NCBI GenBank assembly: GCA_036630325.1 | Contig: CP142736.1 | Location: forward strand, 868,001-932,000 | Source: Vairimorpha necatrix | Lineage: Eukaryota | Direction of reading: 5' to 3' | DNA: 64,000 bases | Shown: positions 1-64,000 of the stretch, in pieces | Position numbering within the stretch: the stretch's first letter is position 1 | How the letters are laid out: every line of letters begins with the position of its first letter | Notes under the pieces: generated by a model | Seen by the model: only the letters and a program-made list of their open reading frames with translations | Database searches by the model: none | What the model was told of the DNA's origin: nothing | Made by a program: the position numbers and the translations under genes

Positions 1-3000
1 TAAATACATTATTATTATATAACGTTTTTTTAGCAAATTTAATGTAAAAGTGAAGAATAAATGTATACGAACTAAGTTAAACCATATGGTTTTTACAACT
101 TAATCTACAATTAGACGATAAATATTGAATAAATAGAGCACAACGAAATGTGCGTTTTTCAAAATTAAGAACAAAATCCCCATGACTTTAATTTGGCTAG
201 ATCAAATTTTTGTATATAATACAGTATAGAGTTATAAAATCCGGTGATTATGTCATAATGTTCAAACCCCCTTTGTTTTTATCATATAAATTTACGAGTA
301 TTTGTATGCAAAATACTATAATATGTAGCAAAATATTTTTTTTATTTTGATTAAAAATTAGTACAATAATTTTAATTGATCAAATTACTGATATCAAATA
401 GTTTACTCATAACAAATTTGATCTTTGAATAGCGAAGAACTTCACGAAATTGTATCGCGCCCCAACAGAGCAAACAGCGTAATCACCTTCTTGAAGGTAC
501 ATAATATGGCTTTTAACGTTACACTATTAACAGCACTTACAATACTGTGTAATGCGCTTATAAATGTAATGTATTACGGGCATCCCGTATTCATAAATCT
601 ATAGTTCATTTAAACAAGTTCATCGGATAATAATTATGCTCTTGGTTGTTTATGTTTCTATCAATTTCTACAATTGTCGTTTAGTTTCATAAAATATCAA
701 GAAATATGTATTTATATCGATCTTTTGATTTGACTCGTAGACAAAATAAATATCTGTAATCGTATGAATATAAATTACTAAAAGAAGAAACATTTGCCTA
801 AAACTAGTACAAATCCTTCTAATAGATACCTTATATATAAGATTGACAAAATGGTTGTAATGTATAAACATATTTTAAACAACTTAATATAATTTTTTAT
901 AAAATCGACTCGATTTGGCTATTATTTAATCTATACAATAATAACTATGGTATTTTATTAATTAAAAGGATTGAATAAGGAATATATAGTAATAAATTGT
1001 TGTTTTCTATACCTTTGAAGAGAAGGTGTTGAATCTACATCGTATTATTATAAATTTTATTCATAAGGCAATTATATAATTCAGATTTATGAAATAAAGC
1101 TAAAAAGAATATTGTTTTTTGTTTGCTTCAAATTAATAGTAGATATATTTCTGTTCCTCATTGTTGAATATTAAAACATTAATAAATAAAGCCTTTAGAG
1201 GTTAAACGTCTTTTAAAGTTCCATCGTATATCTTATTGTGCTTAATGAACACTAATAACAATATTATTCAATTTTGTTCATCGCGTTTTGTATATGAACT
1301 TTGAAAAATAATTTAATCCAGAAATATTATTACGAGTGAAAAAAATTCTACATGGCTCGAAATTTTTTATTAACTTGGATTTTTTCCTATTAGTTTTTTA
1401 TCTATAAAAATACTACATACATCTTTTTTTTTAAACAATCAATTTAATTGAAAGATAAATAAAAGAAAATAATCTTTTTTACAGAATGTATTGCTTGTAT
1501 AAAAAAAAACTAGTGTATTCGTCTCGAAGCTTCTTTGCTGCAGCTGTCTTATTTATATAAATGTTTTTAACAATAAAAAAACACACAACAAATATTTATT
1601 TAGTTATTTGCGTTTCTGTTATCATTTATTTCTTATATTTTTGTATCTTAAGTATACTTGTAAATTCTTTTTTTTTGTCTTCTAAATTTCACGCATTAAT
1701 AAAATCATACAATTTTTAGTTCAATGTTCTGTATCCCGTTAATTTGTTTGAATCGATAATATGCATGCTGATCGTATTATTTTCGAAGTTAATACACTGT
1801 AAAATAAATTTAGTTTTAACACAAAAGCCAGAACCCAAGGCGATTGTTTTCAAATGGTTTAGTAAAAGTATTATATTTATACGTATTCTCTTATTGATAT
1901 CCAATTTTCTATTTTATTATATAAAATGAGGAATTGGCATGTATTAGTTTGGAGCGTTCAAGAACAATTTGACATTTGAACAGAATTAGACTAACAACAA
2001 CTTTAACATATATAGCAATTAAAAAAAAATTTGAGAAATCATATAATATGGAAATGTTTGAAATTATTACATAAATACATCAATATATGGTTGATTTTTA
2101 TCTAAAAAGCATATCATTTATAAAAATTTAGCAAATGTTTTCATTTAGAAGATTTTTGTTTAAGTATTAAATTGGATATTTTATATAATATCGTTGCTAA
2201 AATAAGATATTTTATTAAGGCATTCTCAAATCAACATTTCATTTATAATATATGCTAATCATGTGCCGCTTTTAGAATTTTATTGGTGTTTTTTTCTTTA
2301 CTTTAAAAAAAAAATTTAAAAATAATAAATTATTACACTAAACATCTCTTATAATTAAAGCGGTCGTCAAACCAAATGTTTGACAGAACACGCCGTTAAG
2401 TAGAATTTTCTTATAGTTTCACGACAATGCAAATTTATTTCATATCCGTTCCGCGGTATCATTTATTTGTTTTAACTCTTAACATAATTGTTGCAATGCA
2501 ATGTTTGGGCTCATAGTCTACAAAATAAAACAATCTCTAATTCTTCTTTATCTCTGTCGTGTGTTTTATTTTATTAGTAAGTAGACTTATAGTTCTTCTA
2601 CTTTCTGCTTACATATATTTCCTATCCTATTCTTATTTTCCATAAAGTTAGAAACACTCGTTATTTTTTTACTATACTTAATACAAGATGTTAGTTTCAA
2701 AAAAAGTAGAAATTAAAGTTTGCGTTATACTTCTCGTGTATTTATCACATTCCATCTAAAGTCAAAATAAATCATTTTTTGCCCGGAAAATGTTTTTGAT
2801 AAATATATTTACAAAAAGATCTTGTTTCGTAATAATTCCTTTTTCGGCTAGAAAACGTCGGTCTTGTTCAAAATTTCAATTTTCTCTTTTGTTATTACTT
2901 GGTATTGTCTAAATCTTATATCTAATCGATTCTTCGTTGAACGTGTCTCATTACATACTATATTTATGTACTTATTATTTATTAAAACCAAAATTATATT

Positions 3001-3859
3001 CAAAATATATATATATATATATACGTCAAGAATCGCCAATAAATATATATTTGTGTATAAAAGATAATTCACCAAATAATGATTAAACAAAAATTTAATT
3101 TCTATTTCATTTATTGATAATTTGTTTTAGGTATTTTATAGCTCTTGGTACAACTGTCCTCTATCAAATTCATAGATTCTTTAGAAAAACTAAGACGCTG
3201 AAATTAGTACCCGAATCAATTTACACAAAAAAGTTTAATGTTTTAATTTATATATGAACCAGAAATATTGCAATTGACAAATCAGATAATTCTCATATTT
3301 TGGAAAATAATTAGTTAAAAAGCCTCTTTATAATCGTCTTAAAATAGAATTGTACTTTAAAAATAGACAATTTAGTAATTTACTGATGACGCAATTTGAA
3401 CAATAACATGGACAATAAATTTTATATGAAAATTTAAAAAATAAAATCTTAGATTTTGTCAAACTTCTCAAGCCTAGCTTCATAACAATACTTAAAATGA
3501 CCTCATAAATTGGCCACAAGAAATTAGAGATTTTAAACTCACTTTGCACATTTAAAACACAAATAAATATAGAATTGGTTACAATAATTCATTGTCTCAT
3601 GTATTTTCAGCATAAAGTTAAATAATAACTTTTGGAAATATTGCTTACGAAAGGTTCATGAAAACGAAAAAAATTTCATAAATTTACATACGTTTATTGT
3701 TCAAATCTTGTTGTCTTAATTTTTTTATTTTTGCCAAGCATTTATGTAATATGTTTTTATTTATTTGTCGATAGTTTTAAGATTTTTTCATTTAAATTTT
3801 TATAAAATTTTTTTAAATTTTCTTTTAAATAAAAGCTTATATTAAATAAAAAACAATAT

Positions 3860-6240
3860 CAAAAGGCCTAGAATCCGAACTATTAGGATTTGTAATAAGC
3901 ACGCAAAGTAAAATTTTACCAAAATTATCTTTTATCTATAATTTAAATATATAAACCGATTGTAAAATTGGACTTCTTCTGCAAAATAGAAGTAAATATT
4001 TATTACATAAAATTAGGAGAATTTATGTGTATTCATTATCCATCTGATATCATGGATTTTTACCCATTAAAACATCTTCTGTGTTACTTATTAACCAACA
4101 ACTTCCTTATAATTGGATTTTGGTGTAGGGGAATATTTTTCATCTATACCTCAAATCGAATCCAAAGGTACCTCATAGCAAATATACTCGACTTACAGAA
4201 AGCAAATCTAAAAGAAACTCGGGGTCAAGCTAGCTAAATATCAAACATCATTTACATCTTAAACTGCAAATAAACCCCCGAATCACCAAATACGCATTAA
4301 AGTGGAACGCGTGGCAATAGGCCTTCAACTTATTTCGATCAGTTGAATTAAAATTTTTAGTATACGATGCACGAAACCTTCTATTGTTCTATCTTGTCTA
4401 GTATCTTGATTATTTTAATAAAACCTCAAATATAACCTCTTTGGGCTTATTGGGCCGTACTCAGACTTATATTTTGAACTAGAAGTTTTTTAAAAAAAAA
4501 TTACTATTTTTGTAATTAAAGGGCTCTATACTTTTGATGCTGGGCCAAACATGGCTGTATGCGACAGTTTTAATAATATTCTACATATTTTTGTGGTCTT
4601 TTAATCATCAGAATTGTTCAACTGCATCGTACATAAATAAACTTTTAAGTGTCCAGAGATATAAATTATTAATGTCCATTGGACGATCTTTAGTCTCTGA
4701 CACTATGCTTCCGGCTTATATATTGACCTCTTCTACCTTCTTTTTCTTTAAATTTATTTTTGAGGTATATAATATTTAAACGGCAGGAACTAGAATATGC
4801 AATAAATACTATTTAGCTTGAAAATAACATTCAAAGTATTTTCGTATATTTGAGATCGAATGTTTAAATTCATTGCAATTAGTGATATTGTATATTTTTT
4901 GTGCGCTGGTTATTTGGCTATAATAATTCTTAAACTAAAATAAAATTTTCGAAAAAATCTAGAAATTAAAATAATTTGCTAACATTATGATATTTTATCA
5001 ATAATAAGATTTATTTTAAAACGGCCTTTTTGAAAATTTCATTAATATTAAAGCAGCTTAGCGATATAGCGTCTAGATTTTTAAACAAATTTTTCAAATA
5101 TCTAAAAATTTCATCAAGTGAATTATTTAATAAAATTTTATCATTTTGACTAAAATCCATAAGATATTGATGTTTGAAAAAAATTATGAATATCTCAAAT
5201 CTTTCAACTATTTGAAATGCTTTCTCGAAAATATATAACCTTGCAGGGAGAGTGGTATAAAAATCGATTATTTTTAAACCATCATATTTATAAAGAAAAT
5301 GTGTAGATGTGGTGTATCTTTTTATAGCGTAAAAAATACATTCAAAAAAATCGAACTGGTACTTAATATCATTTGAGTAATCATCGTAAGAAATAGTATT
5401 CACTGCTTTCTTAATAATATTTGTATGATCTCCAAGAGATGCATAAAACAGAAATAACCTATTTCTTATTTTTCGTTTTTCAGTAGTATACTTTTTTAAG
5501 TCATTTTCTTCCATATCGTTAATACTGTAATTTTTTAGATTTTTCTTTTCATCTTCGATTTTCCAAGTACTAAGTTGGCTAAATAATTTTAATTTTAAGT
5601 ATTTGTAGTTCGATTCATTTTGAAAGTTATCACTTTCTAAAGTGGTCGTTATATTGTTCTTATCAAAGATTTGTGCTTGTAAATTATCATTGGAAGCTGA
5701 GGTAATAGATAAAGAACCAAAGTTTTTAGTTTTTTTTCTGGGAGAACTTTTATCACAAGTAGCACTTTCATCATTATTATTAAATTTTCTTTTTAATTTT
5801 AAGCCATCATTTTGCTTTTGAATATGTGTAAATGAACGTGTTTTGTTATTCGAAGATGTTGCTATAAGACATATTTTGAAAAAAATATATTGTAACATGT
5901 AAGGGCTCTTTTTCATTTTTGTTTGGTCTATAAAAAGTAGTAGCAGAATATATAATTTTAAAGCATATTGAAAGGTTCTTACGCGTTAACATGAAAGAAT
6001 AATAGTGAAAATAATTCTAACATGAAACGTATAAACTATAGCAGATAGAGGCATCCATTAATTTTGATCTATTATTCAAAAAAATACTATTGAATTCACT
6101 TAACCTGTATGGAAGGTCGAGATAGAAGCAGAATTTAGCAGAAGTTTTGTGAATTGATTCTAGTCTGCGGTACGATACAACCTCAGAAGAAGATTTAACA
6201 AAAGTATCCCACGAAATTTATTTCTAAATTTATTAGATAT
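3860..6240. repeat. Segmental duplication unit A (gene copy 1 plus flanks), paralogous to ~8930-11280
   Basis: Collinear similarity across the CDS, ~300 bp upstream and ~1.1 kb downstream. Includes a 41-bp identical block (4161-4201 = 9230-9270). Boundaries approximate. Confidence 0.8.
5011..5898 (-). CDS. MLQY-family putative secreted protein, copy 1 (~295 aa)
   Basis: ORF 5011..5916. Start reassigned to the ATG at 5898 because it follows a CCC motif (agCCCttacATG) and aligns with the paralog starts. Hydrophobic N-terminus MLQYIFFKICLIATS, basic patch SPRKKTK, family motifs DDYSNDIKYQFDFF and IVERFEIF. Confidence 0.85.
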   Translation of the reverse strand: MLQYIFFKICLIATSSNNKTRSFTHIQKQNDGLKLKRKFNNNDESATCDKSSPRKKTKNFGSLSITSASNDNLQAQIFDKNNITTTLESDNFQNESNYKYLKLKLFSQLSTWKIEDEKKNLKNYSINDMEENDLKKYTTEKRKIRNRLFLFYASLGDHTNIIKKAVNTISYDDYSNDIKYQFDFFECIFYAIKRYTTSTHFLYKYDGLKIIDFYTTLPARLYIFEKAFQIVERFEIFIIFFKHQYLMDFSQNDKILLNNSLDEIFRYLKNLFKNLDAISLSCFNINEIFKKAVLK

Positions 6241-8929: not shown

Positions 8930-11280
8930 AAAAGGCTATATACACATGCCATATAAGTTTTTTACAAAAAAACAAAGCGAAATTTTGACCAAAAACATAT
9001 TATTTCTATAATTTGCAATAATGAAAACGATTGTAATTTTTGACTTCTTCCGAAAATCGAAAAAAGAAGATTCCTTACATAAACCAGAAAAAAAGGAAAT
9101 TCATATTCCGCTGGTATTATGAGATATTTTTTCATTAAACTCCTTTGTATAACTTATCAGTGCAGCAAGCTCCCTTGTATATTATTTGGGCCTTAGGAGA
9201 ATAATTTTCCATCTATACCTCAAAACGATTCCAAAGGTACCTCATAGCAAATATACTCGACTTACAGAAAACATATCTAAAGGAAACTCAGCGTCGAGCT
9301 AGCTAAAGTTTAAACATCATTTACATCATACACGGCAAAACCCCCCAAGATCGCCTAACACGCATTTAGTGAACGCGTGACCATAGGGCTACCACAAATT
9401 TTGATCAAGTTTATTTAAAAATTTAGAGTATACAATACACGAAACCTTCTATTCTTCTATCTTGCCTAGTACTTTGATTATTTTAAGATTACCTCAAATA
9501 CACCCTTTTTGGGCTTGTTGGGCTGTACCCAGACGTATAATTTAAACTAGAAGTTTTCAAAAGGAGAATGCTCTTTTTGAATAAAAAAAAGCGTTCCTAC
9601 TCTTGGTGCCGGGCCTATAATGGCTGTACGCGACAGTTTTTTTTTAATTACCACATAATTTTGTGGACTTTTCAGCATTAGAATTGTTTCAACCGCATCG
9701 TATGGGGTATAAACTTTTTGGTACCAAAGATTTAAATTCTTAATTAACAAGCTTTTTTCGATAAATATACTACTGCTTCTGTTTTGACTTCTTCTGGCTT
9801 CTTTTTAACTACAATTCATAAAAGGTTTATAATATTTAAACGGCAGGAACAAGTATGTACAATAAAAACATTTTAGCATTAAAATAAACATCCAAAGATT
9901 CCCGTCGAATTCGAATGTTATATCATGCATTTTTTATTTTTTATTGTTTTGTGCACTGGTATTTTGGCTATGATAATTCTTAAACTAAAACAAAACATTA
10001 AATAAATAAAGAAATCAAAATGAATTGCTACATTATGATAATTTATCACTATTAAAATTTATTTTGAAACGGCTTTTTTGAAAATGTCATTAATATTAAA
10101 GCAGCTTTGCGATATAGCGTCTAGATTTTTAAACAAATTCTTTAAATGTTTAAAAGTTTCATCTAATGAATTATGTATTGCAAATTTATCTTTTTCCTCA
10201 AAATCATTTAGATATTGATGTTTAAAAAAAATCAAAAATATCTCAAACCTTTCAACTATTTGAAATGCTTTCTCAAAAATATATAACCTTGCAGAAAGAG
10301 ATGTATAAAAATCGATTATTTTTGAACTATCATATTTAAAAAGAAAATGTTTAGAAGTGCTTTGTCTTTTTATAGCGTAAAAAATACATTCGAAAAATTC
10401 GAACTGATCCTTAATATCGTTTGAGTAATCATCGCGAGGAATATTATTCACTGCTTTCTTAATAATATTGATATTATTAGTAAGAGATGCAAAAAACGGA
10501 TATAATTTATTACTTATCTTTAGTTTTTCAGAAGTATACTTTTTAATTTCATTTTCTTTCATATCTTTAACAAGATTATTTACAAAATGTTTCTTTTTAT
10601 CTTCGAATTCCCAAGTACTGATTTGATCGTATAATTTAAATTTTAAGTATTTGTAGTTCGATTCACTTTGAAAGTTATCACTTTCTAAAGTGGCTGTTAT
10701 ATTGTTCTTATCAATGTTTTGTGAATGTAAATTATCATTGGAAACTAAGGTAATAGATAAAGAACCAATGTTTTTAGTTTTTTTCATAGGATAACTTTGA
10801 TCAAAAAAAGCACTTTCGTCATTATTATTTAATTTTTTTTTCAAATTTAAGGCATCATTTTGCTTTTGAATATGTGTAAATGAATGTGTTTTGTTATTCG
10901 AAGATGTTGCTATAGAACATATTGCAAAAAATATATATTGTAACATTTAAGGGCTCTTTTTCATTTTTGTTGGGTCTACAAAAGTAGTATCAGAATATAT
11001 AATTTTAGAAGTATATTGAAAAGTTACTTACGTAATAATACGTTTTAAAATGAAAAAATTTCAACATTAAACGAATTCAACCAAAACAGGCAGAATCATC
11101 TTTGATTTTGATCTATTACATAAAATAACTACTAAATTTACTCGACAAATTCTAGAGAGAAGAGATAGGAGCAGATTTTAGCAGAAATTTGGGAATTTAA
11201 TTTACTCTTCGATTATCCAACCTCAGAATAAGTTATAACTAAGGTCCTACATCAATTTCTTTCTAATTTAATAGACATTT
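8930..11280. repeat. Segmental duplication unit B (gene copy 2 plus flanks)
   Basis: Collinear with 3860-6240. Boundaries approximate. Confidence 0.8.
10059..10946 (-). CDS. MLQY-family putative secreted protein, copy 2 (295 aa)
   Basis: Intact ORF with agCCCttaaATG start context; closely similar to copy 1 along its whole length. Confidence 0.87.
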   Translation of the reverse strand: MLQYIFFAICSIATSSNNKTHSFTHIQKQNDALNLKKKLNNNDESAFFDQSYPMKKTKNIGSLSITLVSNDNLHSQNIDKNNITATLESDNFQSESNYKYLKFKLYDQISTWEFEDKKKHFVNNLVKDMKENEIKKYTSEKLKISNKLYPFFASLTNNINIIKKAVNNIPRDDYSNDIKDQFEFFECIFYAIKRQSTSKHFLFKYDSSKIIDFYTSLSARLYIFEKAFQIVERFEIFLIFFKHQYLNDFEEKDKFAIHNSLDETFKHLKNLFKNLDAISQSCFNINDIFKKAVSK

Positions 11281-28848: not shown

Positions 28849-29733
28849 TTAACTTTTTGTGTTAGTTTCCCATAAAAGCTCTACGACTTTATTAGAATTT
28901 AAGGTTATCTTTCGTAGATTCGAAAACAACCTTTTAACTTTACAGTGTATCGTTTCAAAAGCGCATTGTATTGCATTTTTTTCGATTTCATTATAAATAA
29001 TAATATATTTATATTCGAAAAATGCCTTAAATATCTCAAATCTATCGACTATATTGAATTCTTCCTTAAAAGTATTCATTCTGATAGGCAAATTGCCATA
29101 AAATTCCATTATTTTGGAACTATTATATTTATAACTTAAATTTTTGGCAGTAGTAAAGATTTTCAAATAACCGAAAATCTCTTCAAAAAAATCTAATTGG
29201 TCTTTTAAATCATCTGAATACTCATCATAAGTGATCTTATTTAATGCTATTTTAATTATAGTAAGCAATTGATTAAAATTTTTATAAAACACTGCAAACT
29301 CACGTTTAACGTATTTTTTTGATTTTTCAAACATTCTTATTTCATTTTCATCCATACGATTATTTTTGTGCCATTTAAGATTGTCATCATGATCTTCAAT
29401 ATTCCATATATTTATTTGATCACACAATTTCTGTTTCAATGATTTATAATCAATAATATTTAGTAGACCGTTGACGCCCAAAGTGATTATTCTTTTTTTT
29501 CTGTTAACATATTGTAGGTATGAACTATTATATTCTGAAGTACTAGACGAAGGATCTGCTTTTTTATTTTTTATTGAAGGGGTTATCAGTACATAAAAAT
29601 CTGCACAATCAGTATCTAATTTTTTGTTATTTTTTGAATTATCTGGATAATAGAGAACCTTAGGGAAAAAATCAGGTTCTTTATTGTAGTTTTTCACCTC
29701 AGAACAAACTACTAAAAAAAGATATTGTAACAT
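28849..29733 (-). CDS. MLQY-family putative secreted protein, copy 5 (294 aa)
   Basis: Intact ORF; aCCCCCatatATG start; MLQYLFLVVCSE; motifs DEYSDDLKDQLDFF and IVDRFEIF. Confidence 0.87.
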   Translation of the reverse strand: MLQYLFLVVCSEVKNYNKEPDFFPKVLYYPDNSKNNKKLDTDCADFYVLITPSIKNKKADPSSSTSEYNSSYLQYVNRKKRIITLGVNGLLNIIDYKSLKQKLCDQINIWNIEDHDDNLKWHKNNRMDENEIRMFEKSKKYVKREFAVFYKNFNQLLTIIKIALNKITYDEYSDDLKDQLDFFEEIFGYLKIFTTAKNLSYKYNSSKIMEFYGNLPIRMNTFKEEFNIVDRFEIFKAFFEYKYIIIYNEIEKNAIQCAFETIHCKVKRLFSNLRKITLNSNKVVELLWETNTKS

Positions 29734-36810: not shown

Positions 36811-37286
36811 TCAAAAATTTGTAATTTTTTTTGATGAAGATGAATGGATTAAAAAACATGTGCAAATAAATATCAGAAGATATATATTAACACAACTTAA
36901 AATTTTAAGATGGGAAGTATATGATTCTATGCGTATGGCTGATGGTAAAACAAAAAAATAAAGGGGAAGAAGTTACAGAAAAAAAAATATATACAGATGT
37001 ATAGAAACATTTGAAAGGTTATAATGTCATACACTGAATTGATCTTAGTCTCATTACAAAAAAAACGAAAATGCACAAATAGATAACAATATAATATTAA
37101 TATTTTCTATGGTAAAAAATCTAAATAAGAAATAAATGACACTCATAAAAAGCGACAGTTTTAATGATTTAATATATGAAATTAAATATTATTTGACATT
37201 ATAAAAACAACCTTTTCAGATTAAGATAAAATTTTTTGTCACATATTTAAGTTATATTTTTGTTTTTGCATGATTTTTTTCCCACT

Positions 37287-40200
37287 TAAACATTTATTCT
37301 AGAATAGGGGTTATAAATAATTATTATTTCACTCAACATCCCCCTCATTCAAAATAATCCTCTACTATTAGCTTAAGTTGCGAGCCATGTCGCTTTATAG
37401 TTTTATTATGGACCTTAACGTTATAAGAATTATTTCCTAAAATATTAATAATTATACCTTGCGATTCAAATCTAGGTTTTCCCTTTGTTAAATCGGTTTC
37501 TCTTCTAATTATAACACTATCTCCCTCTTTAAAAATAAATTCAGCTCCTCTTTTCTTCTGTCGTTGGTTGAATTTTATGATTTCTTCGAATTGTCTTAGT
37601 TTAATCTCCTGAGCTCTCTTAGGATTACATGCTTCATCTGGCGACATGCCAAGAACGGAGTGTCTAACATTATTGTATACATCTAGTACACGCTTAGTTT
37701 TTGTCTTCAAATTTCCAAAACTATTATCTTTATATATACCTTCCTGTATTGTCCTATTAAATCTTTCTATTCTTCCGTTTGATTGGTGATGAAAAGGGGA
37801 AATATAATGAATTTGAACATTATTTCTCGTTGCCCATTGTTTTACCTCAATACTCAAATTTTCTTTTGACTGATCAAGAATTAGTATTTTAATCTTTATG
37901 TCATTATAAACTTCATCAAAAAATTTCACTAGCTTATTACTCTCTCTAGTAGTAATGACTTTAGCCCACGCTTTCCTTGTAAAATAGTCGATCGCCGTAA
38001 TTTTATAGCTTCCATTGATTGGTCCTATAATATCGGCAGCTACCTTTTCGCCAGGTTCGTATGCTGTCACAAATATGAATTTTTTTCCTCTTTGTGGATT
38101 GTACATCTTACATCTTAGACATTTATTAATTTCCGTTTTTACCATATGCGACATATCTTTCCAATGATATTTTTCCTTAATTCATTTTCAATAACTTTTG
38201 ATCCTCTGTGAACTAACTCTATATGTTTATTCCTTATGATAGACCTTTTTTCTTCTTCGCTAAATTCAATCATATTTATTTCATCCGTATTTAACTCATT
38301 AAGATAAGATCTTGACAAACAATCGACGTGAGGAATATCTGTCCCCTTTTTGTACTCGATCGTGTAATTATACTCACTCAATTTATCAAGCCACCTTTGT
38401 ATACGTAACGATTTTATTTCGCCTTTATTTAGGACCTCTAGAGCTTTGGGATCAGTTATTACTTTAGACTCATTTCCATATAAAAAATATCTAAAATTTT
38501 CCATTCCCCATAGGACACCCAAGCATTCTTTCTCGCTGATACTGTAATTTCTTTCCGCTGGAACCAATCTTCTAGAAGCGTACGCGATTGGGTACACATG
38601 CCCTTCATTTTCTTGTGACAAGATCGCTCCCAGACCAGAGTCACATGCATCCGTTTCTAATATGTAAGGTTTACTAAAATCTGGCTGTTTAAGCACACTG
38701 CTCGACAATACAATTTTCTTTAACGTGTTAAAAGCAGCATCCTGTTCCTTCCCCCAATTAAATTGAATATCATTTTTTGTAAGATCATATAAACATCCTC
38801 CGATTTTTGAACAATTAGGAATAAATTTTTTATAATAATTAATAAGTCCCAGAAATTCTTGCAGTGATTTTTTATTGATTGGTCTTTTCATATTGTTAAT
38901 TGCTTGGTCCCGTGTAATTTTTGGCTTAATTTAGTTATATGCTATTAAATGTCCCAAAAGGTAAGTTCTTTAACCTTATATATTGTTTTATCCTCATTAA
39001 TACCTAAGTTATAGCTTTTAAGCTTTGTTATGATCTTCTCATAATTAAAATCACGTTATTCCTCGTTTTCTCCAAAAACCAGTATGTCATCGCCATACAC
39101 GAAGCAACTTTTCCCCATTTTTTCTTGTAAAACATCATCTATAAATCTTTGAAAAATTGCCGGAGCATTTTTAAACCCCATTGGCATAACGTTCCATTCT
39201 ATAATAGGTGCTTAAATCTGAAAGCGGTCTTATATCTATCTTTTCCCGCTAATTCTATACAAAAAAATGCATCTTTTAAATCCAATTTACTAAAATATTT
39301 TTTCCCACGAAGCCCGTATAAAAGCTTATCAATGTGTGGTAAGGAGTAATTATCTAGCTCTACCAATTTGTTTAACGAAACTAAATTTGTAGTAACTCTT
39401 ATAGAACCATCTGGTTTAATTACTGGTCTTAAATTATTCAACCACGTTGATTTTGATTTTCTTATGTAATTTTTACTTAGTAGTTCTTTGATAGATTTTT
39501 CCACTCCTTCTTCTAACTTTTTTGGTAGTGTATAGACCTTTTCAACAATTTTTTCTCCTTTTATCGTATTTATTTCACAAATTCTATTGCTAGACACCCT
39601 TTTCAATATTTCTTGTAATGTCTTTTTTCCTACAAGTATTTTAAATTTTTCCACCTTAGGGAATATAAAAAATTTAGAACGATAACTTTTACCACCATAA
39701 GAGAAATCTAATATCACATATTCTGTAATCCCGAATCTTTCTTCTAAACATGTTAAAAAATATATTTCCTCTGTACTTCTATAAATTTTTAAAGTTAGTT
39801 CAGAAGCAGCCTTTTTACTCATAAAATTATAGTAAGAACCCGAGTCAAAAGTTACATTAATTTTTTCATTATAAACATATATTAAATCTTCTTTATTGTT
39901 AATAAAGTTTGCATCCAACATTTCGCCTTCTTGGTGGATCTCATTTATCCTTTTATACTGTAGTTGTTTACCATCAGTTCTTTTCTTCTTCGCAAAACAG
40001 TCTTTAGCAATATGCCCATCCTTGTGGCAAAAATAACATGAATATCTTTTGTTGATGTTATTGGAGGCAGGTTGTCTTATTTTTGTTATATCGTTATTTT
40101 CCTTTTCCATTTCATCAATTATTTCAAGGAATTCTTTATTAATTTCATATTGCCCTGTTAATACCATTTTTATAGCCTTATATCTTGGTAGAATTCCATT

Positions 40201-40616
40201 TCTTATTATCTTCCTTTTACCCGTATTTCTGATATTTTCCTTTAGACATTTCTTTTCTACATCTTTGATAAATTCCACAATACTTTGGTTTTCTTTTTGT
40301 TTTAAAGTATATAATTCGTACAATCCAGTACCGCAGTCAAATTCCGTTTCTGCCAACTCTTTCCACATTTCAAATGTTAATGAACATTTCCGTTTCTCCT
40401 TCATTAACATACTATGCCAATCTAGTATCTCAATGTTGGCTTTATGAATAAAATAATCAATTTTTTCCTCATTTGATAATTTATTAAAACTGGAAAGTAA
40501 AGAAGCTCTTTGTAGCTCCTGCAAGATATTTCACTACTAATCTCTGTTTTCATATTCTCCACCATAAACATTTATTCTAGAATAGGGGCTATAAATAATT
40601 ATTATTTCACTCAACA
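37287..40616 (-). mobile_element. Ty3/gypsy LTR retrotransposon with 52-bp LTRs, frameshifted (3330 bp)
   Basis: Direct repeats 37287-37338 and 40565-40616 (51/52 identical); 5-bp TSD CCACT (37282-37286, 40617-40621); PBS TGGTGGAGAAT abuts the 5' LTR; PPT GAGGGGGA abuts the 3' LTR. Confidence 0.93.
37345..40571 (-). pseudogene. Gag-PR-RT-RNaseH-IN polyprotein broken into several frames
   Basis: ORF 39199..40524 has CYFCHKDGHIAKDC, FDSGS protease and SKLDLKDAF. YGDD lies at ~39085-39100, RNase H LETDACDSGLGA in 38139..38891, and integrase ADIIGP / HHQSNGRIERFN in 37345..38154. Confidence 0.9.
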
Positions 40617-42115
40617 CCACTAAATTTAATAACAATATTGGTATCATAATTTGAATTATTTTTGTGAGTTTCAAACAAATCTTTGCTTTTCTGGTCACAT
40701 GAGGTTGAGTATTGAACTAAAAACGGTTTTCTTTTTTAAAAAATTATAAATATTTTATAGATTAGAATTGATTATCTGGCCTAAAATAATTTATATTTTA
40801 GTACTGATTACGTGGAACCATTTTATTTCGAGCAATAACATTGTTTATTTAAAATCTATAATAGACTGTATTATCTACATGTCATTTTTGCCTTTTTTTA
40901 GAAAATATTTGTTTTATTTTTAGCTGAAACTAATTTCAAAGAAAGAATGGAACAAAAAAAACACAATTAAAAAACAAGACCAAAAAGAAAACAAAGGACT
41001 TATAGATAACATCATTTGAATTAGTAATAAATAAAGATTAGAGAGGTTTTTACTACCAAGAAGCTTACTCTGGTTCCACAAAACACTAATTCAAATTAAT
41101 ATTAAGTTTTCATATTTAATACTTGTGTTTTTTCTCTTCTTTAAATTAAAATTTCAGATATAAATGATAAAAATTTTTTAAATTCAAAATACAGGAATAA
41201 CAAAATAAAAAATGTCAACGAACATGTGTTGTAAACATTCTACAAATAATGCCAAACGTATTTTTAGATTTATAATTTAAGTAAAGTATTATTGTGCTTT
41301 GATTTCTTACATCTATGTAATTTGAAATACCCACAGTTAATGTTTGTTCAAAAAGCCATTTAAAGAGTACATGTTATTCATAATTTTTCAGTTATGATTG
41401 TAGTGTTATGATTACATGTATCAAACACCACTTAAAGCTTCTCTATTAATTGTACAAACGGCTTCAGAAAAAGAGCCGAATAAAAAATATAAATTTTGGA
41501 AAGTATGAAATGTTATTATATACGACTTAGAATGCTGTATTTTCGATAAAAATTCCATCACGTGTTTTCTGTAAGATGTTTGGTTATTAAGCCTGTATTT
41601 TTCTTTAAAAAAGCTTATTTTTTACAAAAAAATAAAAGATAAAAATATATTGAGATTTCTCAAGTTTATTAGCACATAGATTATCTTGTTGCAAGGAATT
41701 TTGCTCCTCAAATTATGGATATTGCAATATTGATTATGTTTTCAAGCTTCGTCATACTTTCATTCTCTTAAAATGCGTTATTTTTTAACTGTTACACTCT
41801 TAACTAGTTAGTTACAATTTTATACAATTCTTTATCAACAGCATCTTCCTGATATATTCTATCTTTGATCTAAGCTATAAAAAAACGGATTAGATACATA
41901 AAACTGAAACAAATATTAGCTGTTATATGAAAAAAAAACCTTTATATAAATAGACATTAAGGTATTATACGAATTTACCAGTGTTAAACATTATTTATGA
42001 CATAAATTTAAAATTTTCAATTTTATTGACATACATTTTATAACAGCTTTTGAAAGGTCTATTTAAAATTAGAGCCAACTTTAAATATTTATATATTAAA
42101 AAAAATCTCCTCCCC

Positions 42116-43264
42116 ATGAAAATAAATATTCAAAATATCATAAATTTGTATTTCAAAATGTTCAATTTAACACTATCTCGAGATCAGGACAAAACGGAGA
42201 ATCAGGCTTTATCTCCATATTCCTTCCTTCAAGTACTAGGTCTCCTCGCCAATGGCACAGATGACGAAACAAGCAATAAATTTATTGGTAAATTGGGCTT
42301 TGAACCAAATATCAACGATTTTAATATAAATTCTAATAAAATTAACGAGATCTTGACTAAAAAAAGAAATAGAGATGATCTGTTTGTGACGTGTGATTAT
42401 ATCGTGACGAATTATTTATTTCATAGTGATAAATTTATAATTAACGAAGATTTTAAGACACTTATCTCAAATTTTTACAATATAAAAATCTCATCATATA
42501 ATCCTAAGAAAGTGATTGATGATTATAAAAATTTTTATCATTATATCACCAATGGCACTAATATAATTTTTCAACATTTTATAACTTCTTTTGGCCCAGA
42601 CATGTGTTTATTAAAAGAAAACAATTTCTATTTAAAACAAGAATGGAGCACAAATTTTGACTTTTTCCGTGTTGAAGATTTTACAACTTATGCTGGAAAA
42701 GTTAAACAAGATATGATGTATAATTATATAGCAAAAAAGTACAATTTTTATGAAGACGAAAAAATAATTGCTGTAAAAATGCTTTATAAAAATTCTGATT
42801 CATTCTTCCTGGCCGTCATGCCTAAAAAGATTGAGGATTGGGACGAAGTAACTAAAAAGATTTGTTCTGAAAACGAACTAAATTGCTTAATATCGCGAAT
42901 GGAATACGGAAATGTAAATTTAACCTTTCCTAAATTTAGATTCGAGTATGAGGTCGATTTTATCACATATTCAAAAGATCTGGGGATTGATAGTATGTTG
43001 AATTCATTAAAACTAGACAAACTGAAGACGGACTTCAAATACGAAAATTTAGAAATTAAACAAAACGTACTTATTGATGTATATGAATTTGGATTTGTAA
43101 CTCATTTAGTGTCTAATAAATCAGTAAAAGAAAAAACTGAAGCAAACAATTTCCGTGTTTTGGAATTTAATAAACCCTTTTTATGGTTCGTAATAAGACA
43201 AGACGATAATTTCACTTGTAGTCTACCGATTTTCATGGGAAAATTTATTGGACCCAAAAAATAA
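42116..43264 (+). CDS. Serpin-family protein (~382 aa)
   Basis: Motifs ALSPYSFLQVLGLLANG, LTFPKFRFEYE, QNVLIDVYEFG, EFNKPFLWFV and PIFMGKFIGP. Start reassigned to the ATG at 42116 (ctCCCCATG). Confidence 0.9.
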   Translation: MKINIQNIINLYFKMFNLTLSRDQDKTENQALSPYSFLQVLGLLANGTDDETSNKFIGKLGFEPNINDFNINSNKINEILTKKRNRDDLFVTCDYIVTNYLFHSDKFIINEDFKTLISNFYNIKISSYNPKKVIDDYKNFYHYITNGTNIIFQHFITSFGPDMCLLKENNFYLKQEWSTNFDFFRVEDFTTYAGKVKQDMMYNYIAKKYNFYEDEKIIAVKMLYKNSDSFFLAVMPKKIEDWDEVTKKICSENELNCLISRMEYGNVNLTFPKFRFEYEVDFITYSKDLGIDSMLNSLKLDKLKTDFKYENLEIKQNVLIDVYEFGFVTHLVSNKSVKEKTEANNFRVLEFNKPFLWFVIRQDDNFTCSLPIFMGKFIGPKK

Positions 43265-57606: not shown

Positions 57607-59665
57607 TATATTTTAATAAAACATGACAAACAATTAAATAAATATTGTAAAATTTTCAATTTTTATATTGTACTTCCAAAGCAAACTTTTTAACTATTAT
57701 ATTTAGTTCCAAAATTTTTTTTTGGGTGTGTTGTTATTCCTAAAGTCGAAAAAACATTTAGTTGATTTTTACTTTCTATTTTTTTTAATCACAGTCAGTA
57801 TAGTTAAATATATTGAAGTTAAAAATATTAATTGTGTTTGTTTACAAAAATTATTTTTTACTTTATATGAACAAACGGCCATTTGACAAATCCTTCCAAA
57901 GATTTTTAACAGCATTGATAATAATGTATTTATGCTAAAATATTTCCTCAAAGGTTTTCAGCAGATCAAATCTCGAGTTTTGGTTATTTACACATTTTGT
58001 TGTTTCTAAAAAAGTCTTAAAATTTTTATTATTTTAGATAATTCATAATATTCATTTTTAGTTTGAATTATAATTCTTTCTAATTCCATAATCAAGCACA
58101 TTTTTATTATATAGAAAAATTTTACTCGCATCAATTAATATTTTTATAAAGTCCTACCTTCTTTTTTATTTTGATCTTTGTTGCTGCAATTATATGCATA
58201 TGTTTCTCAAAAATATCACAATTCTTAATCAATCCTTTAAAATCAACTTTAAATATTGAGTGAAGGCTTTGATAATTTATTTAATTAATAAATATACAGC
58301 TGATTTTTTGTGATAGTAAATACTCCTAATAATTTTCAATATTTTATCATTTTTTTTCAATTAGCTTGAGATTACAAAAAATTTCGTTTTTGTTGCCTTG
58401 ATTGATTTCCATTAATGTTACAATTCTCATAAGTTCCTTAAATGTTGATTTATTAACAAGTAATTCTAAATTATTTTCTACGATCTTACATTATATTTTT
58501 GGCGATATGAAAAATTCAGGCATAGTTTAAATAATTGCATACTATGAAATCATTTTCATCAATTGTTTGGAAAAAAATGATTCATCCCTTCGGTTTTATT
58601 TTCTGTATTATTATTATTGTGTATTCGTTCTTAATTTTTGATGCACCATATACTTCGTTTACATCAACAAAATTAAATAATTTATGTGTTTCAAATTTTT
58701 TTTCGATATTTATTCCTCGCAGAATATATTTTCACATGCTTCTCAAAAATATTATCTAGGTTAAGTTCGCTAGATCGATATTTTAAAAATTAAAACTTTC
58801 TTCGATTGCATAATAAAAAAATTTAAAAGAGAACCTTTATTTTTAAAAAATTTAAATCTTCATTATTATCATTGAGAAAATACAGTTATACAAAGCACAT
58901 TTTTCCTTCTAAATCATTTTATATATATTTTATTGCTTTTTTCCCTTTATCTTTTTTGTTATCGATAATATTTTTACGGGAAAATGAATGGTCTTGGTTT
59001 TTTTTTCATAAACAAGTATTTTTGAAGGGCTCAATTATTCATTATACAAAAGTATTCATTTAATTTTTAGAGGCTTTCGTAATTTCTACGTTTTCTTATG
59101 TAATTACTTGCTTTTTAATTAAAATAATTTTATTTATTATTATTAAATTTGATATAATCTATGTTGATATTCTTTTTTATTACTATGTACTGCATTGTTC
59201 TAACGGTTCTTTGTTTTTATAAGGGGGATACCTTCTCCTATATTTGTCTTCTTTTTTTTATCAATAAAATTATTAAAAATTACCATATGATTCTAACTAA
59301 TAATACTAAAGCATGACAATATAAGATTTATGTTGTATATATATGTTTGAATATAAATACTTGTTACAAAGTTTTTTCAGAATCCTAGTAGTTCTTTTTC
59401 TCATATATTTACGCAGGAATCAAATTTTTATAATTTTTTAAATAGAGGAGATCGAAAACCAAATAATTATTTTTTTCCAGTTCCCTTAACCTTCTCAGCA
59501 TTTGGAAGTTAGTGCTTGATAATTTATATTGTTTATCGTTACTTTCAATAAAAATGCAGAATAGTGTATTTATATTTTAAAAATGACTTTGAAGTTCTTG
59601 AAAAATTTGAGAAAATTTATATTTTAGGTTAAGTAATTTTTTACATATTTTTATTTTTCAACTTA

Positions 59666-62600
59666 TGTTATAATCAGTAATAATATTAAACCCTAATTAT
59701 GTTAAGCACTTATATGGAGGCGATACCTAAAGAAGAGTTCACAAGAGAGGACTGTGGCCAAGTGGTCAGAAAGATGTTACAGGAGTTAGAGCGTATATTG
59801 TATGAATTGGATTTGAGAGATGTGGATAGAGAGAAATGGAAGAGTGAGCTGTTCAAGTTGGCTTCGATGGATTTAAAAGATTTTATTGTGAGAAATATCA
59901 AAAAGGAAGAAAATATTGAAGGAATAAGGAAGAAGCTATTGTTAAGGATTAAGGAAGTAGAGGAGGAAGAAAAGATATATGAGGAAATGAGAAAAATTAT
60001 TTCTAGGACTATAAATGAAGAAATTAGTAGAGAACAACCAAGACAAAAATCGAGAGTACCGAGATGCTTCTATTGTGATAGACAAGGGCATAGGGTGTTT
60101 GAATGCAGACTGAAGATTAATAGAGATAATTATTATAAAAAGACTAACAAGGATAACAGTTGCAAAATGGAAGTAGGTAGTGAATCAGAGTCAAGTCAGG
60201 AGCGAGATTTTAGAAGATCAAAAAGAGGACTTAGAGTCAAATTTGAGAAAAATCAAAAAGAATATGCCGTTAAAGAGGAGAGTAAGAGAATCAGATTAAA
60301 TTTAGATAAGTATGCTAAGAGTTTTGGAGAGGTTTTTAAGTTAGGAAAAGAGGAGATAAAATATTGTAAACTGGAAAAATGTAAAATTAATACTGAAGCG
60401 GGTATGAAGGTATTTAAAAAGGGACAAATGGTTCCGCAGGCGTTGATAAAAGATACAGAGCTACATCTAGAAGATTTATTAAAAAGGAAAGTGATAAGAG
60501 AGTCAAATTCAAGTTGGAGGAATCCTATAAGGTCAATCAGAAAGCCAAATGGTGAGATAAGACTGGTTAGTAATTTGATGGCATTGAACGATATTGTAGA
60601 AAAGGACGAGTATAGATTGTCTAACATAAGAGATGTTGTAAGAGCTACACAAGGTGCAAAATATATGACGGTTTTCGACTTAAAAGAGGCCTTCTATAGT
60701 ATTGAGATAGAGGAGGAGGATAAACATAAGACGGCGTTTGATTTTAATGGCAAGGTTTATGAATGGAACTCTATGGTTATGGGATATAAGAATAGCCCGC
60801 AGATATTGCAGAGAATTATGGATAGGATTTTTAGAGATATGAAAGGCAAAGGAGTAGAGGTGTATATGGACGATATTGTGTTGTACAGCCGAACGATAGG
60901 AGAACACGAGCAATTAGTGAAAAGGGTATTAAATAGACTGAAGGAAAACAATATGAAGCTGAATGCAAATAAAGTTCAGTTTTGTCAACGGGAAGTTAAA
61001 TTATTGGGAGTCACTTTAAATGGAGAAGATATAATACCGTCAGAGATAAAGAAAAATGAAGCCCTAGAGTTTCCGATACCAACATGCGTGTCAGATGTAA
61101 GAAGATTTTTAGGAATGACGGGTTGGTTCAGAGATTTTATTAAGAATTACGCTGGATTGACAGTTAGGTTGACAGATAGTTTAAAAGGGAAGAATGATAA
61201 TTGGAAGTGGACGGATGATATGAAAAACGAGTTTAATAATTTAAAAGAAGTATTGAAAGGCCTAGGAAAGCTGCAAATAGCAGACTATGATAAAGAATTT
61301 TTGTTGAGGACTGACGCTAGTAATGTAGGCATGGGCGCAGTACTGTTACAGAAAAATAATCAAGGAGAATGGGTGCCAGTACAGTGGGCGTCTAAGAAGT
61401 TTACCGTTACGGAAGTTAATTATGGTATATCAGAAAAAGAAATGTACGCAGTTTTTTGGGGCGTTAAAAAGTTTGAATATGAATTAAGAGGTAGGAAATT
61501 TAGAATAGAAACTGATCATAAAGCGTTGGGCGAAATAAGAAACAAGCCCGACTTCAAGAATGCTAGAATTAATAGATGGGTCGAGAAGATTCAGGAATTT
61601 GATTTCGTGATAGAATATAGAACTCCAGAAAATATGGTCGTAGCCGATGCGCTAAGTAGGGTATATACAAAAGAAAAAGATGCAAAGAATAAGAGAAATG
61701 AAACACGCCGTGATAGACAAAAAGAAGGGAAAAGAAATAAGCATGTAAAAATTGTAGAAGGTAAAGAATACTGGGTATTTGATAGTGGTAGAGAAGGCGA
61801 GATGCCTTTGGAACAAGACAGAGAGAGATTAATAATGGATTGTCATGTAAATTTGAGCCACAGAAGCAGAACAACGGTATATTATGAGTTGAGGAAACAG
61901 TATTATTGGCCAGGAATTAAGGATCAGATCGAAAAGGTCCTTAAGAATTGCGAGACTTGTCAGATTTTTAATAGAAAAACGAGTGGCGGTACTGATTTAG
62001 TGAACACGACAAGATATTTAGAGAAGGTTGGCTTAGATTTAATAGAATTTAGGGATGAGAAAGCGTTTATTGTTTTGGCAGTTGATTACTTTACAAGGAG
62101 ATTATGGGGCAGAGTATTGAAGAGCAAGCACGCATCTGGAATTGCCGAATTTATCAAGGATTTGTGTAAACAGGGTAGAAAACCAGAGGAAATCATTACG
62201 GATAATGGTAAAGAGTTTTGCAACGAAAAAGTTACCGAGCTATGTAGAAATTTGGATATTAGTCATAGAAAGGTCAGCGTTGAGTCGCACAGAAGTAATG
62301 GAAGAGTAGAAAGAGTTATTAGAACTGTAAGAGATAGTATTTTAAAGAGCCAAAAAGAGAAATTCGAGAACAAGGTTTATGAAGCTATTGAGAAATATAA
62401 TTTAAGTTTTCATGCTGGTATTAAGTGCACGCCAGTAGAAGCTTTAACCGATAATACAGGAAATGTTAGTATGGAGAATAGTCCAGAGGGAAAGTATGCG
62501 CAACAGTTTAAAAGTTGGTTTAGAGAAAAGTTCAAAAGGAACCAGATAGTTAGGGTTGCCAAGAATGAGAATTTAAAGGGATGTAGTAAGTATAGTAAGG

Positions 62601-62808
62601 GTCGATTTTTAGACATGGGAAGAGTGATTGAGCTATGTCCAGGGGATTCATATATAGTGAGATTAGAGAATGGAAGGTTGGTGAAAAAAAGGCATTATGA
62701 TCTTAAGGGTGTAGGGGATTTAAAGTATGTTGAAGGAGACTAACCGTCTGGAGGGGGGATGTTATAATCAGTAATAATATTAAACCCTAATTATGTTAAG
62801 CACTTATA
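59666..62808 (+). mobile_element. Intact Ty3/gypsy LTR retrotransposon with 49-bp LTRs (3143 bp)
   Basis: Identical 49-bp direct repeats 59666-59714 and 62760-62808; 5-bp TSD ACTTA (59661-59665, 62809-62813); PBS TGGAGGCG at 59715; PPT GGAGGGGGGA just before 62760. Confidence 0.95.
59699..62743 (+). CDS. Single-ORF Gag-RT-RNaseH-integrase polyprotein (1014 aa), no evident protease
   Basis: CFYCDRQGHRVFEC knuckle; RT VFDLKEAF, MGYKNSP, YMDD; RNase H LRTDAS, ETDHKAL; integrase HVNLSH...CETC, VGLDL, ITDNGKEF, SNGRVERV. Confidence 0.95.
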   Translation: MLSTYMEAIPKEEFTREDCGQVVRKMLQELERILYELDLRDVDREKWKSELFKLASMDLKDFIVRNIKKEENIEGIRKKLLLRIKEVEEEEKIYEEMRKIISRTINEEISREQPRQKSRVPRCFYCDRQGHRVFECRLKINRDNYYKKTNKDNSCKMEVGSESESSQERDFRRSKRGLRVKFEKNQKEYAVKEESKRIRLNLDKYAKSFGEVFKLGKEEIKYCKLEKCKINTEAGMKVFKKGQMVPQALIKDTELHLEDLLKRKVIRESNSSWRNPIRSIRKPNGEIRLVSNLMALNDIVEKDEYRLSNIRDVVRATQGAKYMTVFDLKEAFYSIEIEEEDKHKTAFDFNGKVYEWNSMVMGYKNSPQILQRIMDRIFRDMKGKGVEVYMDDIVLYSRTIGEHEQLVKRVLNRLKENNMKLNANKVQFCQREVKLLGVTLNGEDIIPSEIKKNEALEFPIPTCVSDVRRFLGMTGWFRDFIKNYAGLTVRLTDSLKGKNDNWKWTDDMKNEFNNLKEVLKGLGKLQIADYDKEFLLRTDASNVGMGAVLLQKNNQGEWVPVQWASKKFTVTEVNYGISEKEMYAVFWGVKKFEYELRGRKFRIETDHKALGEIRNKPDFKNARINRWVEKIQEFDFVIEYRTPENMVVADALSRVYTKEKDAKNKRNETRRDRQKEGKRNKHVKIVEGKEYWVFDSGREGEMPLEQDRERLIMDCHVNLSHRSRTTVYYELRKQYYWPGIKDQIEKVLKNCETCQIFNRKTSGGTDLVNTTRYLEKVGLDLIEFRDEKAFIVLAVDYFTRRLWGRVLKSKHASGIAEFIKDLCKQGRKPEEIITDNGKEFCNEKVTELCRNLDISHRKVSVESHRSNGRVERVIRTVRDSILKSQKEKFENKVYEAIEKYNLSFHAGIKCTPVEALTDNTGNVSMENSPEGKYAQQFKSWFREKFKRNQIVRVAKNENLKGCSKYSKGRFLDMGRVIELCPGDSYIVRLENGRLVKKRHYDLKGVGDLKYVEGD

Positions 62809-63199
62809 ACTTATAAAATAATTTATTCTTATTTTTTTATATCTTGTTTTCAAAAAAAAATATAAAAATATAGCACAAATACGATATCAATTTATTGTTT
62901 ATTACAAAGTTAAATTTTTTTCTGAAATTAGATCTTTTTTGTATAGAATATAATAACATTTTTATGATCTATTTTACTTTTATAAATGGCATGAATTAAA
63001 TCTAAGATTTTTTTTTGTACCTAAAAAAACTTAGTAGAGTAAAATATTACTCCTTGGTCTGCCTTGCTCAAAATCAATAAAACAATTTACCTTTAACGTT
63101 TTAGAGTCTTTTCTAAGTATCTTCAATTTTTGAGCAAGTTTTAAAAATTTACATATACAATTTTAACAACATTACCTGTATAAAACTAATTTTACTGCA

Positions 63200-64000
63200 C
63201 TAATTACACCTCTGTAAATTTTTTTTTGTCATTCTAACTTTCAATCCTCCCTATAATTTTTCTATAAAACCTTCTTAAACATTTAAATAACTTTCTCTAG
63301 ACTATTTTAAATCAGGACTTTGCGTGTTGTACTATTCACAGCATCTCTGAAATCATTTTTTGCTATTATAAAAACTTAAATTATAATTATCAATATTACC
63401 CTAATGCTTTGTCCAATTTTTTTTATTAATTAACAGTTATTATTACACTTTCGTTTCTGCTTTACTTTTATCAAATTCTACTTTCCTTTTCTAAGACACA
63501 CACTATATACTGCGTAATTTGTCTTGCGTTCAAGAAAACACTCCTTTTTCTGTACGTAATTATACATTCTTTCATTTCCTAAGGTGGTTTAAATCTTTTA
63601 AGGACACACCCATTTTAAGTACTTGTTAGCATCCAATGTTTTTTACATAAACATAGAATAAAGCATCAATAAGAATTTATTTTAATCATATAAGTTCAAC
63701 TATAGATACAACCCAATTTCTCTATATATCCCGTTTCATTAGTAAATTCTGTACTACCGCTCAACATTCTATTAATTTCTTGAATGCCATACATTTCTTT
63801 TAGTTCGTCATCTGATCTCTAATTTTCAATTAATATAACTGAAATTTTTGATAATAATTTGTAATGCATGTTTATGCTTTAATATATTTAACAGTGCAGT
63901 ATAAAATTCTGTAGAGTTGTGGGCCATACCAAACCTCATACGCCATCATAATTTTAACCTTTTACTAAAGACAACTGTGTATAAATTTTAATATAACAAT
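63200..64000 (-). pseudogene. Possible decayed integrase relic
   Basis: Minus-strand fragments RSDDELKE (cf. SDNGKEF) and NVER occur in integrase order. Very degraded. Confidence 0.25.

Follow-up and report, generated by a model that had tools for sequence, protein, structure and literature searches.

A protease-less Ty3/gypsy retrotransposon with 49-bp long terminal repeats in the microsporidian Vairimorpha necatrix

According to Parisot et al. 2014 (PMC4202319), 97 long terminal repeat (LTR) retrotransposon consensuses were reconstructed for the microsporidian Anncaliia algerae, one of which, 'Aalg retro L', is built very much like the element described here. The latter occupies positions 59666-62808 of a 64,000-nt stretch of Vairimorpha necatrix DNA (assembly GCA_036630325.1, contig CP142736.1, positions 868,001 to 932,000 of the forward strand), this whole stretch being called the window below. 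With a probability of roughly 80%, it represents an intact copy from a protease-less Ty3/gypsy lineage specific to microsporidia, with complete LTRs of 49 bp and a canonical LTR cycle that has its start inside the LTR. Supplementary Table S1 of PMC4202319 gives retro L as complete, with an LTR of 50 bp, an open reading frame (ORF) at 32-3049 and a total of 3127 bp, against an LTR of 49 bp, an ORF from base 34 and a total of 3143 bp in the window element; both frames start within the LTR. In File S1, the retro L consensus begins TGTTAT...AATAAA..CCC ATG...ACA, followed by TGGCG, and has TG...CA termini. The window element shares with it the TGTT start, an A(A/T)TAAA hexamer, CCC, ATG, an LTR ending in A and the subsequent TGG. 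Compared by eye, the N-terminus of retro L is also of the M-x6-M-A type found in the family of the window element. Retro L differs in coming from another genus and in the sequence after TGG. Its row in Table S2 gives 19, 20 and 45 under three strains, which are probably numbers of occurrences. Table S1 further lists LTRs of 45 bp for retro S, 73 bp for CK, 90 bp for BU and 105-272 bp for the other complete consensuses. Like the window element, the other A. algerae Ty3/gypsy consensuses have a single ORF and in some cases LTRs below 100 bp; unlike it, they mostly measure 3.6-4.3 kb, with LTRs in the 105-272 bp range.

In the main text of PMC4202319, no discussion of LTR length or of a protease was found among the LTR passages listed, 'bp long' and 'protease' being absent. 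A literature search returned nothing on short LTRs in microsporidia, nor on retrotransposon 'LTRs as short as' a given length, and among the matches listed for 'shortest LTR' none concerned microsporidia. The review 'LTR Retrotransposons in Fungi' (PMC3248453) does not mention Microsporidia or Nosema. The micro-LTR architecture has been in print as data since 2014 without being remarked upon, and the window element adds a further member to a kind that is known but has hardly been described. A first-pass annotation of this DNA had implied a higher degree of novelty, which was too high because an A. algerae element with a 50-bp LTR already stands in Table S1 of Parisot et al. 2014.

The Nbr elements of Nosema bombycis (Xu et al. 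2006, as reported in PMC2474625) are Ty3/gypsy elements with one polyprotein comprising Gag, protease, reverse transcriptase (RT), RNase H and integrase. As far as they are described there, Nbr and the window element are both Nosema-clade Ty3/gypsy elements with one polyprotein, whereas a protease is present in Nbr only. The type member of the group, Ty3 in budding yeast, measures about 5.4 kb; its LTRs are about 340 bp long, GAG3 and POL3 are separate frames, and a protease is encoded. It resembles the window element in the order of RT, RNase H and integrase, in its 5-bp duplication, in the TGG that begins its tRNA-type primer-binding site (PBS), which is putative in the window element, and in its polypurine tract. 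Tf1 and Tf2 of fission yeast likewise have a single ORF, and some relatives of the window element are named 'Tf2' in databases. Self-priming as in Tf1/Tf2 was rejected here, the longest LTR complement in the next 486 nt downstream being 7 nt of A/T.

The features of the element, all on the plus strand, are given below in window positions.

59661..59665, plus strand: left target-site duplication ACTTA, identical to 62809-62813
59666..59714, plus strand: 5' LTR, 49 bp, TG...TA; at 59663-59666, contigs of other copies cease to match the window
59685..59690, plus strand: ATTAAA hexamer (LTR positions 20-25), a poly(A)-signal variant, read as U3, with a putative function
59691..59693, plus strand: CCC start-proximal motif (LTR positions 26-28); CCC is enriched upstream of window ORFs
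59699..62743, plus strand: single gag-pol ORF of 1014 amino acids (P0001); first ATG in the LTR, second in-frame ATG at 59714
59715..59727, plus strand: PBS-like sequence TGGAGGCGATACC, starting TGG, adjoining the 5' LTR and translated within the ORF
59753..60031, plus strand: helical N-terminal Gag-like region, residues 19-111 (AlphaFold, four helices; predicted local distance difference test (pLDDT) of the block 64-78)
60065..60106, plus strand: CCHC zinc knuckle, residues 123-136; C123, C126, H131 and C136 invariant
60536..61018, plus strand: reverse transcriptase, residues 280-440 (Pfam RVT_1, E 3.6e-36); Y389, D391 and D392 invariant
61208..61600, plus strand: RNase H, residues 504-634 (Pfam RT_RNaseH, E 2.8e-32; RT_RNaseH_2, E 2.3e-27)
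61814..62269, plus strand: integrase H2C2 zinc domain and DDE core, residues 706-857 (Integrase_H2C2, E 3.7e-14; rve, E 6.2e-10)
62744..62749, plus strand: CCGTCT spacer from the stop codon to the polypurine tract, kept in distant relatives
62750..62759, plus strand: polypurine tract GGAGGGGGGA, G-rich, adjoining the 3' LTR
62760..62808, plus strand: 3' LTR, 49 bp, same sequence as the 5' LTR
62809..62813, plus strand: right target-site duplication ACTTA, matching the left copy

Two identical 49-nt direct repeats (59666-59714 and 62760-62808) enclose the element of 3143 bp. In the window, which has a G+C content of about 25%, the repeat has two matches at up to 3 mismatches, while none of 100 shuffles gave any. 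An automated repeat search reports the pair as 50 nt (59665-59714), since the left duplication and the polypurine tract both happen to end in A. A 5-bp target duplication is the mark of insertion by a DDE integrase, and ACTTA is found on both sides; together with GGAGGGGGGA set against the 3' repeat, this agrees with the identical repeats, 5-bp duplication and polypurine tract that had been claimed. A G-run followed by ATGTT occurs at only two sites in the window, both at 3' LTRs. No solo LTRs are present in the window, where blastn-short gave the four LTRs of two elements and A/T-rich matches of 11-23 nt.

Other copies were found by comparing four public sequencing runs (X1 to X4) with window positions 59300-63200, for which the differences and loose contig ends are partly listed. 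Contigs of X1 and X2 carry the element at an identity of at least 99%. At least three left flanks unlike that of the window join it at 59663-59666, one of them in both X1 and X2, and X1 has no coverage of the window's own flanks. The 5' boundary is therefore constant while the left flanks differ, which is what the proposed check on copy ends had asked about. Such constant boundaries show that the replication cycle is faithful. Taken with the LTRs of 39, 52 and about 50 bp in relatives, they also support the first-pass claim of an intact retrotransposon with true 49-bp LTRs. Among 37 substitutions listed between copies, 19 are synonymous, against an expected 19% (P ~9e-6). Recent activity of the element is well supported. 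The earlier argument that identical LTRs imply it is weak by itself, since 49 identical bases bound the divergence only below about 6%; it is the open frame, the intact catalytic residues and the near-identical copies elsewhere that support activity.

A few further observations come from the same runs. Two joints, one from 59444 to 62854 in X2 and another within an X4 contig of 24.8 kb, were rejected as spurious, having 21-nt A/T-rich sides and lying off the duplication. Loose contig ends, among those listed, fall behind 59666 in X1 and internally at 59894, 60393, 61304 and 61421. In X3, a freshwater metagenome, two low-depth contigs match pieces of the element without differences. X4, a bat gut metagenome, has four low-depth matching records, two of them at an identity of at least 99%, and one X4 contig also matches the left flank of the window (59388-59528).

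The single ORF (59699-62743) takes up 3045 of the 3143 bases, or 96.9% of the element, in agreement with the 1014-residue frame and share of about 97% given by the first-pass annotation, and TGGAGGCGATACC lies within it, so that the PBS-like sequence is itself coding as had been proposed. Residue invariance was judged on an alignment of 14 family members, in which H716, H721, C751, C754, D780, D835 and E871 of the integrase are all invariant. The Pfam matches follow the Ty3/gypsy order of RT, RNase H and integrase. Sequence matches of the N-terminal 225 residues in the PDB are weak (E 0.13-3.5) and lie in the knuckle region, nearly all of them being nucleocapsid knuckles of retroviral or Ty3 Gag. 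An AlphaFold model of the whole polyprotein, built on the 14-member alignment, has a mean pLDDT of 70.8 and a predicted template modelling score of 0.40, with values below 50 for residues 142-197. An aspartic protease between Gag and RT is typical of Ty3/gypsy elements, although classification rests on RT and domain order. For the protease, there is no Pfam match on the polyprotein, nor any at E up to 10 over residues 124-281. Nor does the AlphaFold model contain a beta-rich domain in the stretch from the knuckle to RT, and none of the residues between C136 and C228 is invariant among the 14 members, hence no conserved D-S/T-G. The polyprotein thus consists of a short Gag bearing a nucleocapsid knuckle, followed by RT, RNase H and integrase; a protease is missing.

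The lineage was placed with a quick IQ-TREE tree of 44 rows, restricted to family members of at least 700 residues. The 31 protease-less relatives form one clade (Shimodaira-Hasegawa-like approximate likelihood ratio test, SH-aLRT, 100), with the protease-bearing Nematocida elements as its sister. Within the tree, the window protein groups with sequences of Nosema granulosis and Vairimorpha necatrix. In databases, the relatives are annotated as polyproteins of the Ty3, Tf2 or 17.6 type.

Short LTRs recur among these relatives. A second micro-LTR Ty3/gypsy element, of another family, lies in the window at 37282-40621 on the minus strand; it is degenerate, with its ORF in three frame pieces, in which no protease match was found. 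Its LTRs measure 52 bp (40616-40565 and 37338-37287, 1 mismatch) and are flanked by the duplication AGTGG; TGG directly follows the LTR and the polypurine tract is GAGGGGGA. To the 49-bp element it shows a protein identity of 34-40% over RT and RNase H and 24% over the integrase. Six metagenome loci were also fetched, and the LTRs of four of these (L001, L002, L003 and L005) were examined. Both ends are present only in L001, a relative at 50% identity, which has LTRs of 39 bp (1 mismatch, TG...CA) and the duplication TTATA; its polypurine tract is GGCGGGGA, and TGG follows its LTR. L002 and L003 are cut off by the ends of their contigs. In L005, a polypurine tract and TGTTAAG..AATAAA..CCCATG make up a 3' end, for which no 5' partner was found. 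TGG thus follows the LTR in three complete elements (the window pair and L001) and in the published A. algerae consensus. Integration by a DDE integrase with 5-bp duplications is seen in three elements. Many relatives of about 1000 residues sit on contigs of 3.0-3.2 kb. Of the 39 close protein relatives, 8 have ORFs that continue through the G-run into ATGTT at their C-termini; across the family, the polypurine tract and the LTR start TGTT are thus no more than a few codons away from the end of the ORF. Among viral contigs, none of 37 pattern matches encoded a relative.

The spacer upstream of the polypurine tract is also worth recording. CCGTCT(T) is found in the same place at L001 3644-3650 and L005 3207-3213 (50-56% protein identity), and where the C-termini of relatives read through, it is translated as T/N-R-L. 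Most other copies of the window element carry an extra T after 62748, which the window copy does not have. CCGTCT(T) may be a cis element for plus-strand priming.

Within the 49 bp of the LTR, the first-pass annotation had placed ATTAAA, CCC and the ATG at 59699, and these are indeed found at LTR positions 20-25, 26-28 and 34-36. Every item of its description is correct, but it missed a second in-frame ATG at 59714-59716, formed by the last LTR base and the TG of TGG, which is the most conserved start position among relatives. The N-termini of 25 complete relatives begin with M-x(2-6)-M in 16 cases, at the second M in 7 and with only the first M in 2. Two in-frame ATGs, 3-6 codons apart, are therefore present in 16/25, and keeping the upstream one in frame fits its lying in the mRNA. 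In three of the four aligned LTR types and in the published A. algerae consensus, CCC is preceded at a distance of 0-6 nt by an A(A/T)TAAA hexamer, and in all four types and that consensus the first ATG has CCC a short way upstream. The full order of TGTT, A/T-rich stretch, A(A/T)TAAA, CCC, ATG, terminal A and TGG is common to the A. algerae consensus, the window element, L001 and, at its single 3' end, L005. From the end of the hexamer to the end of the LTR there are 24 nt in the window element and, by manual count, 22-24 nt in L001 and the A. algerae consensus, a usual spacing between a poly(A) signal and its cleavage site.

The CCC motif in microsporidia was described by Peyretaillade 2009. 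According to PMC2803860, Encephalitozoon cuniculi has 5' untranslated regions of less than 7 nt with a CCC-like motif just upstream of starts, and its poly(A) signals are AAUAAA or AUUAAA, about 20 nt before cleavage. Of the 11 other long ORFs in the window, 8 have CCC at most 20 nt before the ATG, compared with 87 of all 2187 ATGs (4.0%; P ~9e-10). In these eight, a run of 3-5 C is located 0-14 nt upstream of the ATG, e.g., at 42116, 48790, 49909 and 54755, and among the products of the ORFs concerned are a polyprenyl synthetase, a serpin and a protein of the TP_methylase family (tetrapyrrole methylase). The CCC start motif published for microsporidia holds in the V. necatrix genome, and the promoter-type motif claimed for the repeat is to this extent confirmed as a start-proximal signal.

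If the element follows a canonical LTR cycle, transcription must start inside the 5' LTR and the same stretch must serve as R in the 3' LTR. U3 would then comprise LTR positions ~1-28/32, ending in the ATTAAA hexamer and the host-type CCC. Transcription would begin a few bases downstream of CCC, and the RNA would contain the ATG at position 34. R would be about 15-20 nt long, reaching about the end of the LTR, with U5 close to zero. The poly(A) hexamer would be transcribed from the 3' LTR only; cleavage could plausibly occur at the end of the LTR, 24 nt downstream of the hexamer. Minus-strand transfer would have to proceed on at most 20 nt of homology. The conserved start codon might be made up of the A that ends the LTR and the TG of the PBS, with the PBS being translated. 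This U3/R/U5 reading, which we infer from the motifs, is coherent. It could be taken further: the 49-bp repeat might be a complete, self-sufficient LTR with every base in use, comprising a U3 of about 30 nt, an R of at most 20 nt, practically no U5 and a start codon made at the LTR/PBS junction. Strand transfer would again rely on at most 20 nt, the stretch from PBS to polypurine tract would be all coding, and an uncleaved, protease-less polyprotein would perform the whole cycle. This extended proposal is tentative and is given slightly less than an even chance. If true, no autonomous LTR retroelement of smaller design would be known.

Several points weigh against the view of an intact element with a canonical LTR cycle. 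Gag-Pol would have to mature without a protease of its own. The LTR terminus of the 49-bp family is TA rather than the canonical CA, TG...CA being typical rather than strictly defining for Ty3/gypsy. ARAGORN finds no tRNA gene, as a source of the primer, in the window or in the six metagenome loci, and the PBS-like sequence varies between families beyond TGG. The fourth PBS base, 59718, is A in the window copy and G in most copies, a difference that means an E to G change in the protein and an altered PBS; the majority form may resemble the tRNA-Pro type PBS of murine leukaemia virus. The U3/R/U5 boundaries and the roles of ATTAAA and CCC within the LTR are putative. In the 52-bp family, AATAAA stands downstream of CCC, 6 nt from the LTR end, so the scheme with the hexamer in U3 is not valid for every family. 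As for copy number, a 1143-nt element contig of X2 has a word depth of 522 compared with 10-16 on flank contigs, a contrast which fits tens of copies, although the ratio is not equal to copy number. Finally, some copies are dead, as is evident from a contig of X2 with a 1-nt deletion and two stop codons; together with the synonymous bias, this indicates a family with both selected and dead copies.

Of the other explanations, the one that survives best holds that the LTR is almost all R, with transcription starting at or near LTR position 1 by means of an internal downstream promoter or flanking DNA, and with CCC and ATG serving translation only. A U3 of about 30 nt is indeed very little promoter sequence, and microsporidian transcription is known to overrun, as noted in PMC2803860. 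Such a start would, however, place ATTAAA in the 5' end of the RNA as well, and it has to be set against the recurrence of CCC near the first ATG in the four LTR types, the A. algerae consensus and the 8/11 long ORFs. This explanation is unlikely, though it deserves to be kept in mind.

Alternatively, although the window copy looks intact, the lineage might be non-autonomous, being protease-less and moved in trans by protease-bearing elements of the same genome, or else immobile. No protease domain was found, and the window does contain a protease-encoding LTR element at 20836-23656. Against this, the protease-less proteins make up a single, fully supported clade (31 members, SH-aLRT 100), the RT, RNase H and integrase residues are invariant in the 14 aligned members, and variation between copies is biased to synonymous changes. 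Invariant residues and synonymous bias together indicate that the element's own RT and integrase are under selection, and non-autonomy of the lineage is accordingly quite improbable, more so than the almost-all-R explanation. That the element is a deletion derivative of one with ordinary LTRs, such as the 270-bp LTRs occurring in the same window, or that its 49-nt repeat arose by chance or recombination, is excluded for practical purposes by the 5' boundary shared between copies with different flanks, by relatives in three other settings with 39-52-bp LTRs and perfect 5-bp duplications, and by the lack of any match in 100 shuffles.

An intact element with a canonical LTR cycle remains the preferred reading, and it bears on how such elements are sought. 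An apparently autonomous LTR retrotransposon can work with LTRs of 39-52 bp and a total of 3.1 kb. Textbook LTR ranges and default software settings assume at least 100 bp. The 100-bp default minimum ascribed to LTR finders by the first-pass annotation is correct for LTRharvest, whose minlenltr is 100 in Table 1 of PMC2253517. Default structural LTR finders would miss the micro-LTR family in microsporidian genomes, and the repeat content and transposable-element activity of microsporidia may for this reason be underestimated. The family also offers a natural test of minimal R homology, of a minimal promoter and of the function of a protease-less Gag-Pol. As the existence of such elements is already published, what can be added is the mechanistic reading and experimental mapping.

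Three other groups of features were recorded in the window. The LTR element at 20836-23656, on the plus strand, is of conventional type, with 270-bp LTRs at 20841-21110 and 23382-23651 and the duplication GATAC. Its ORF of 609 residues starts inside the 5' LTR and has aspartic-protease and integrase-zinc matches and no RT match; it is probably a non-autonomous derivative. The region 16084-18754 holds an ORF of 574 residues (16425-18149) with integrase H2C2 and rve matches, flanked by palindromic 35-nt repeats at 16084-16187 and 18580-18754, and may be an integrase-type DNA transposon with terminal repeats. Three ORFs on the minus strand (5011-5916, 10059-10946 and 28849-29733) encode paralogue-like proteins of about 295-300 residues with no Pfam matches. 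Two of these share their first twelve bases, and the region upstream of 10059-10946 contains the start of 5011-5916.

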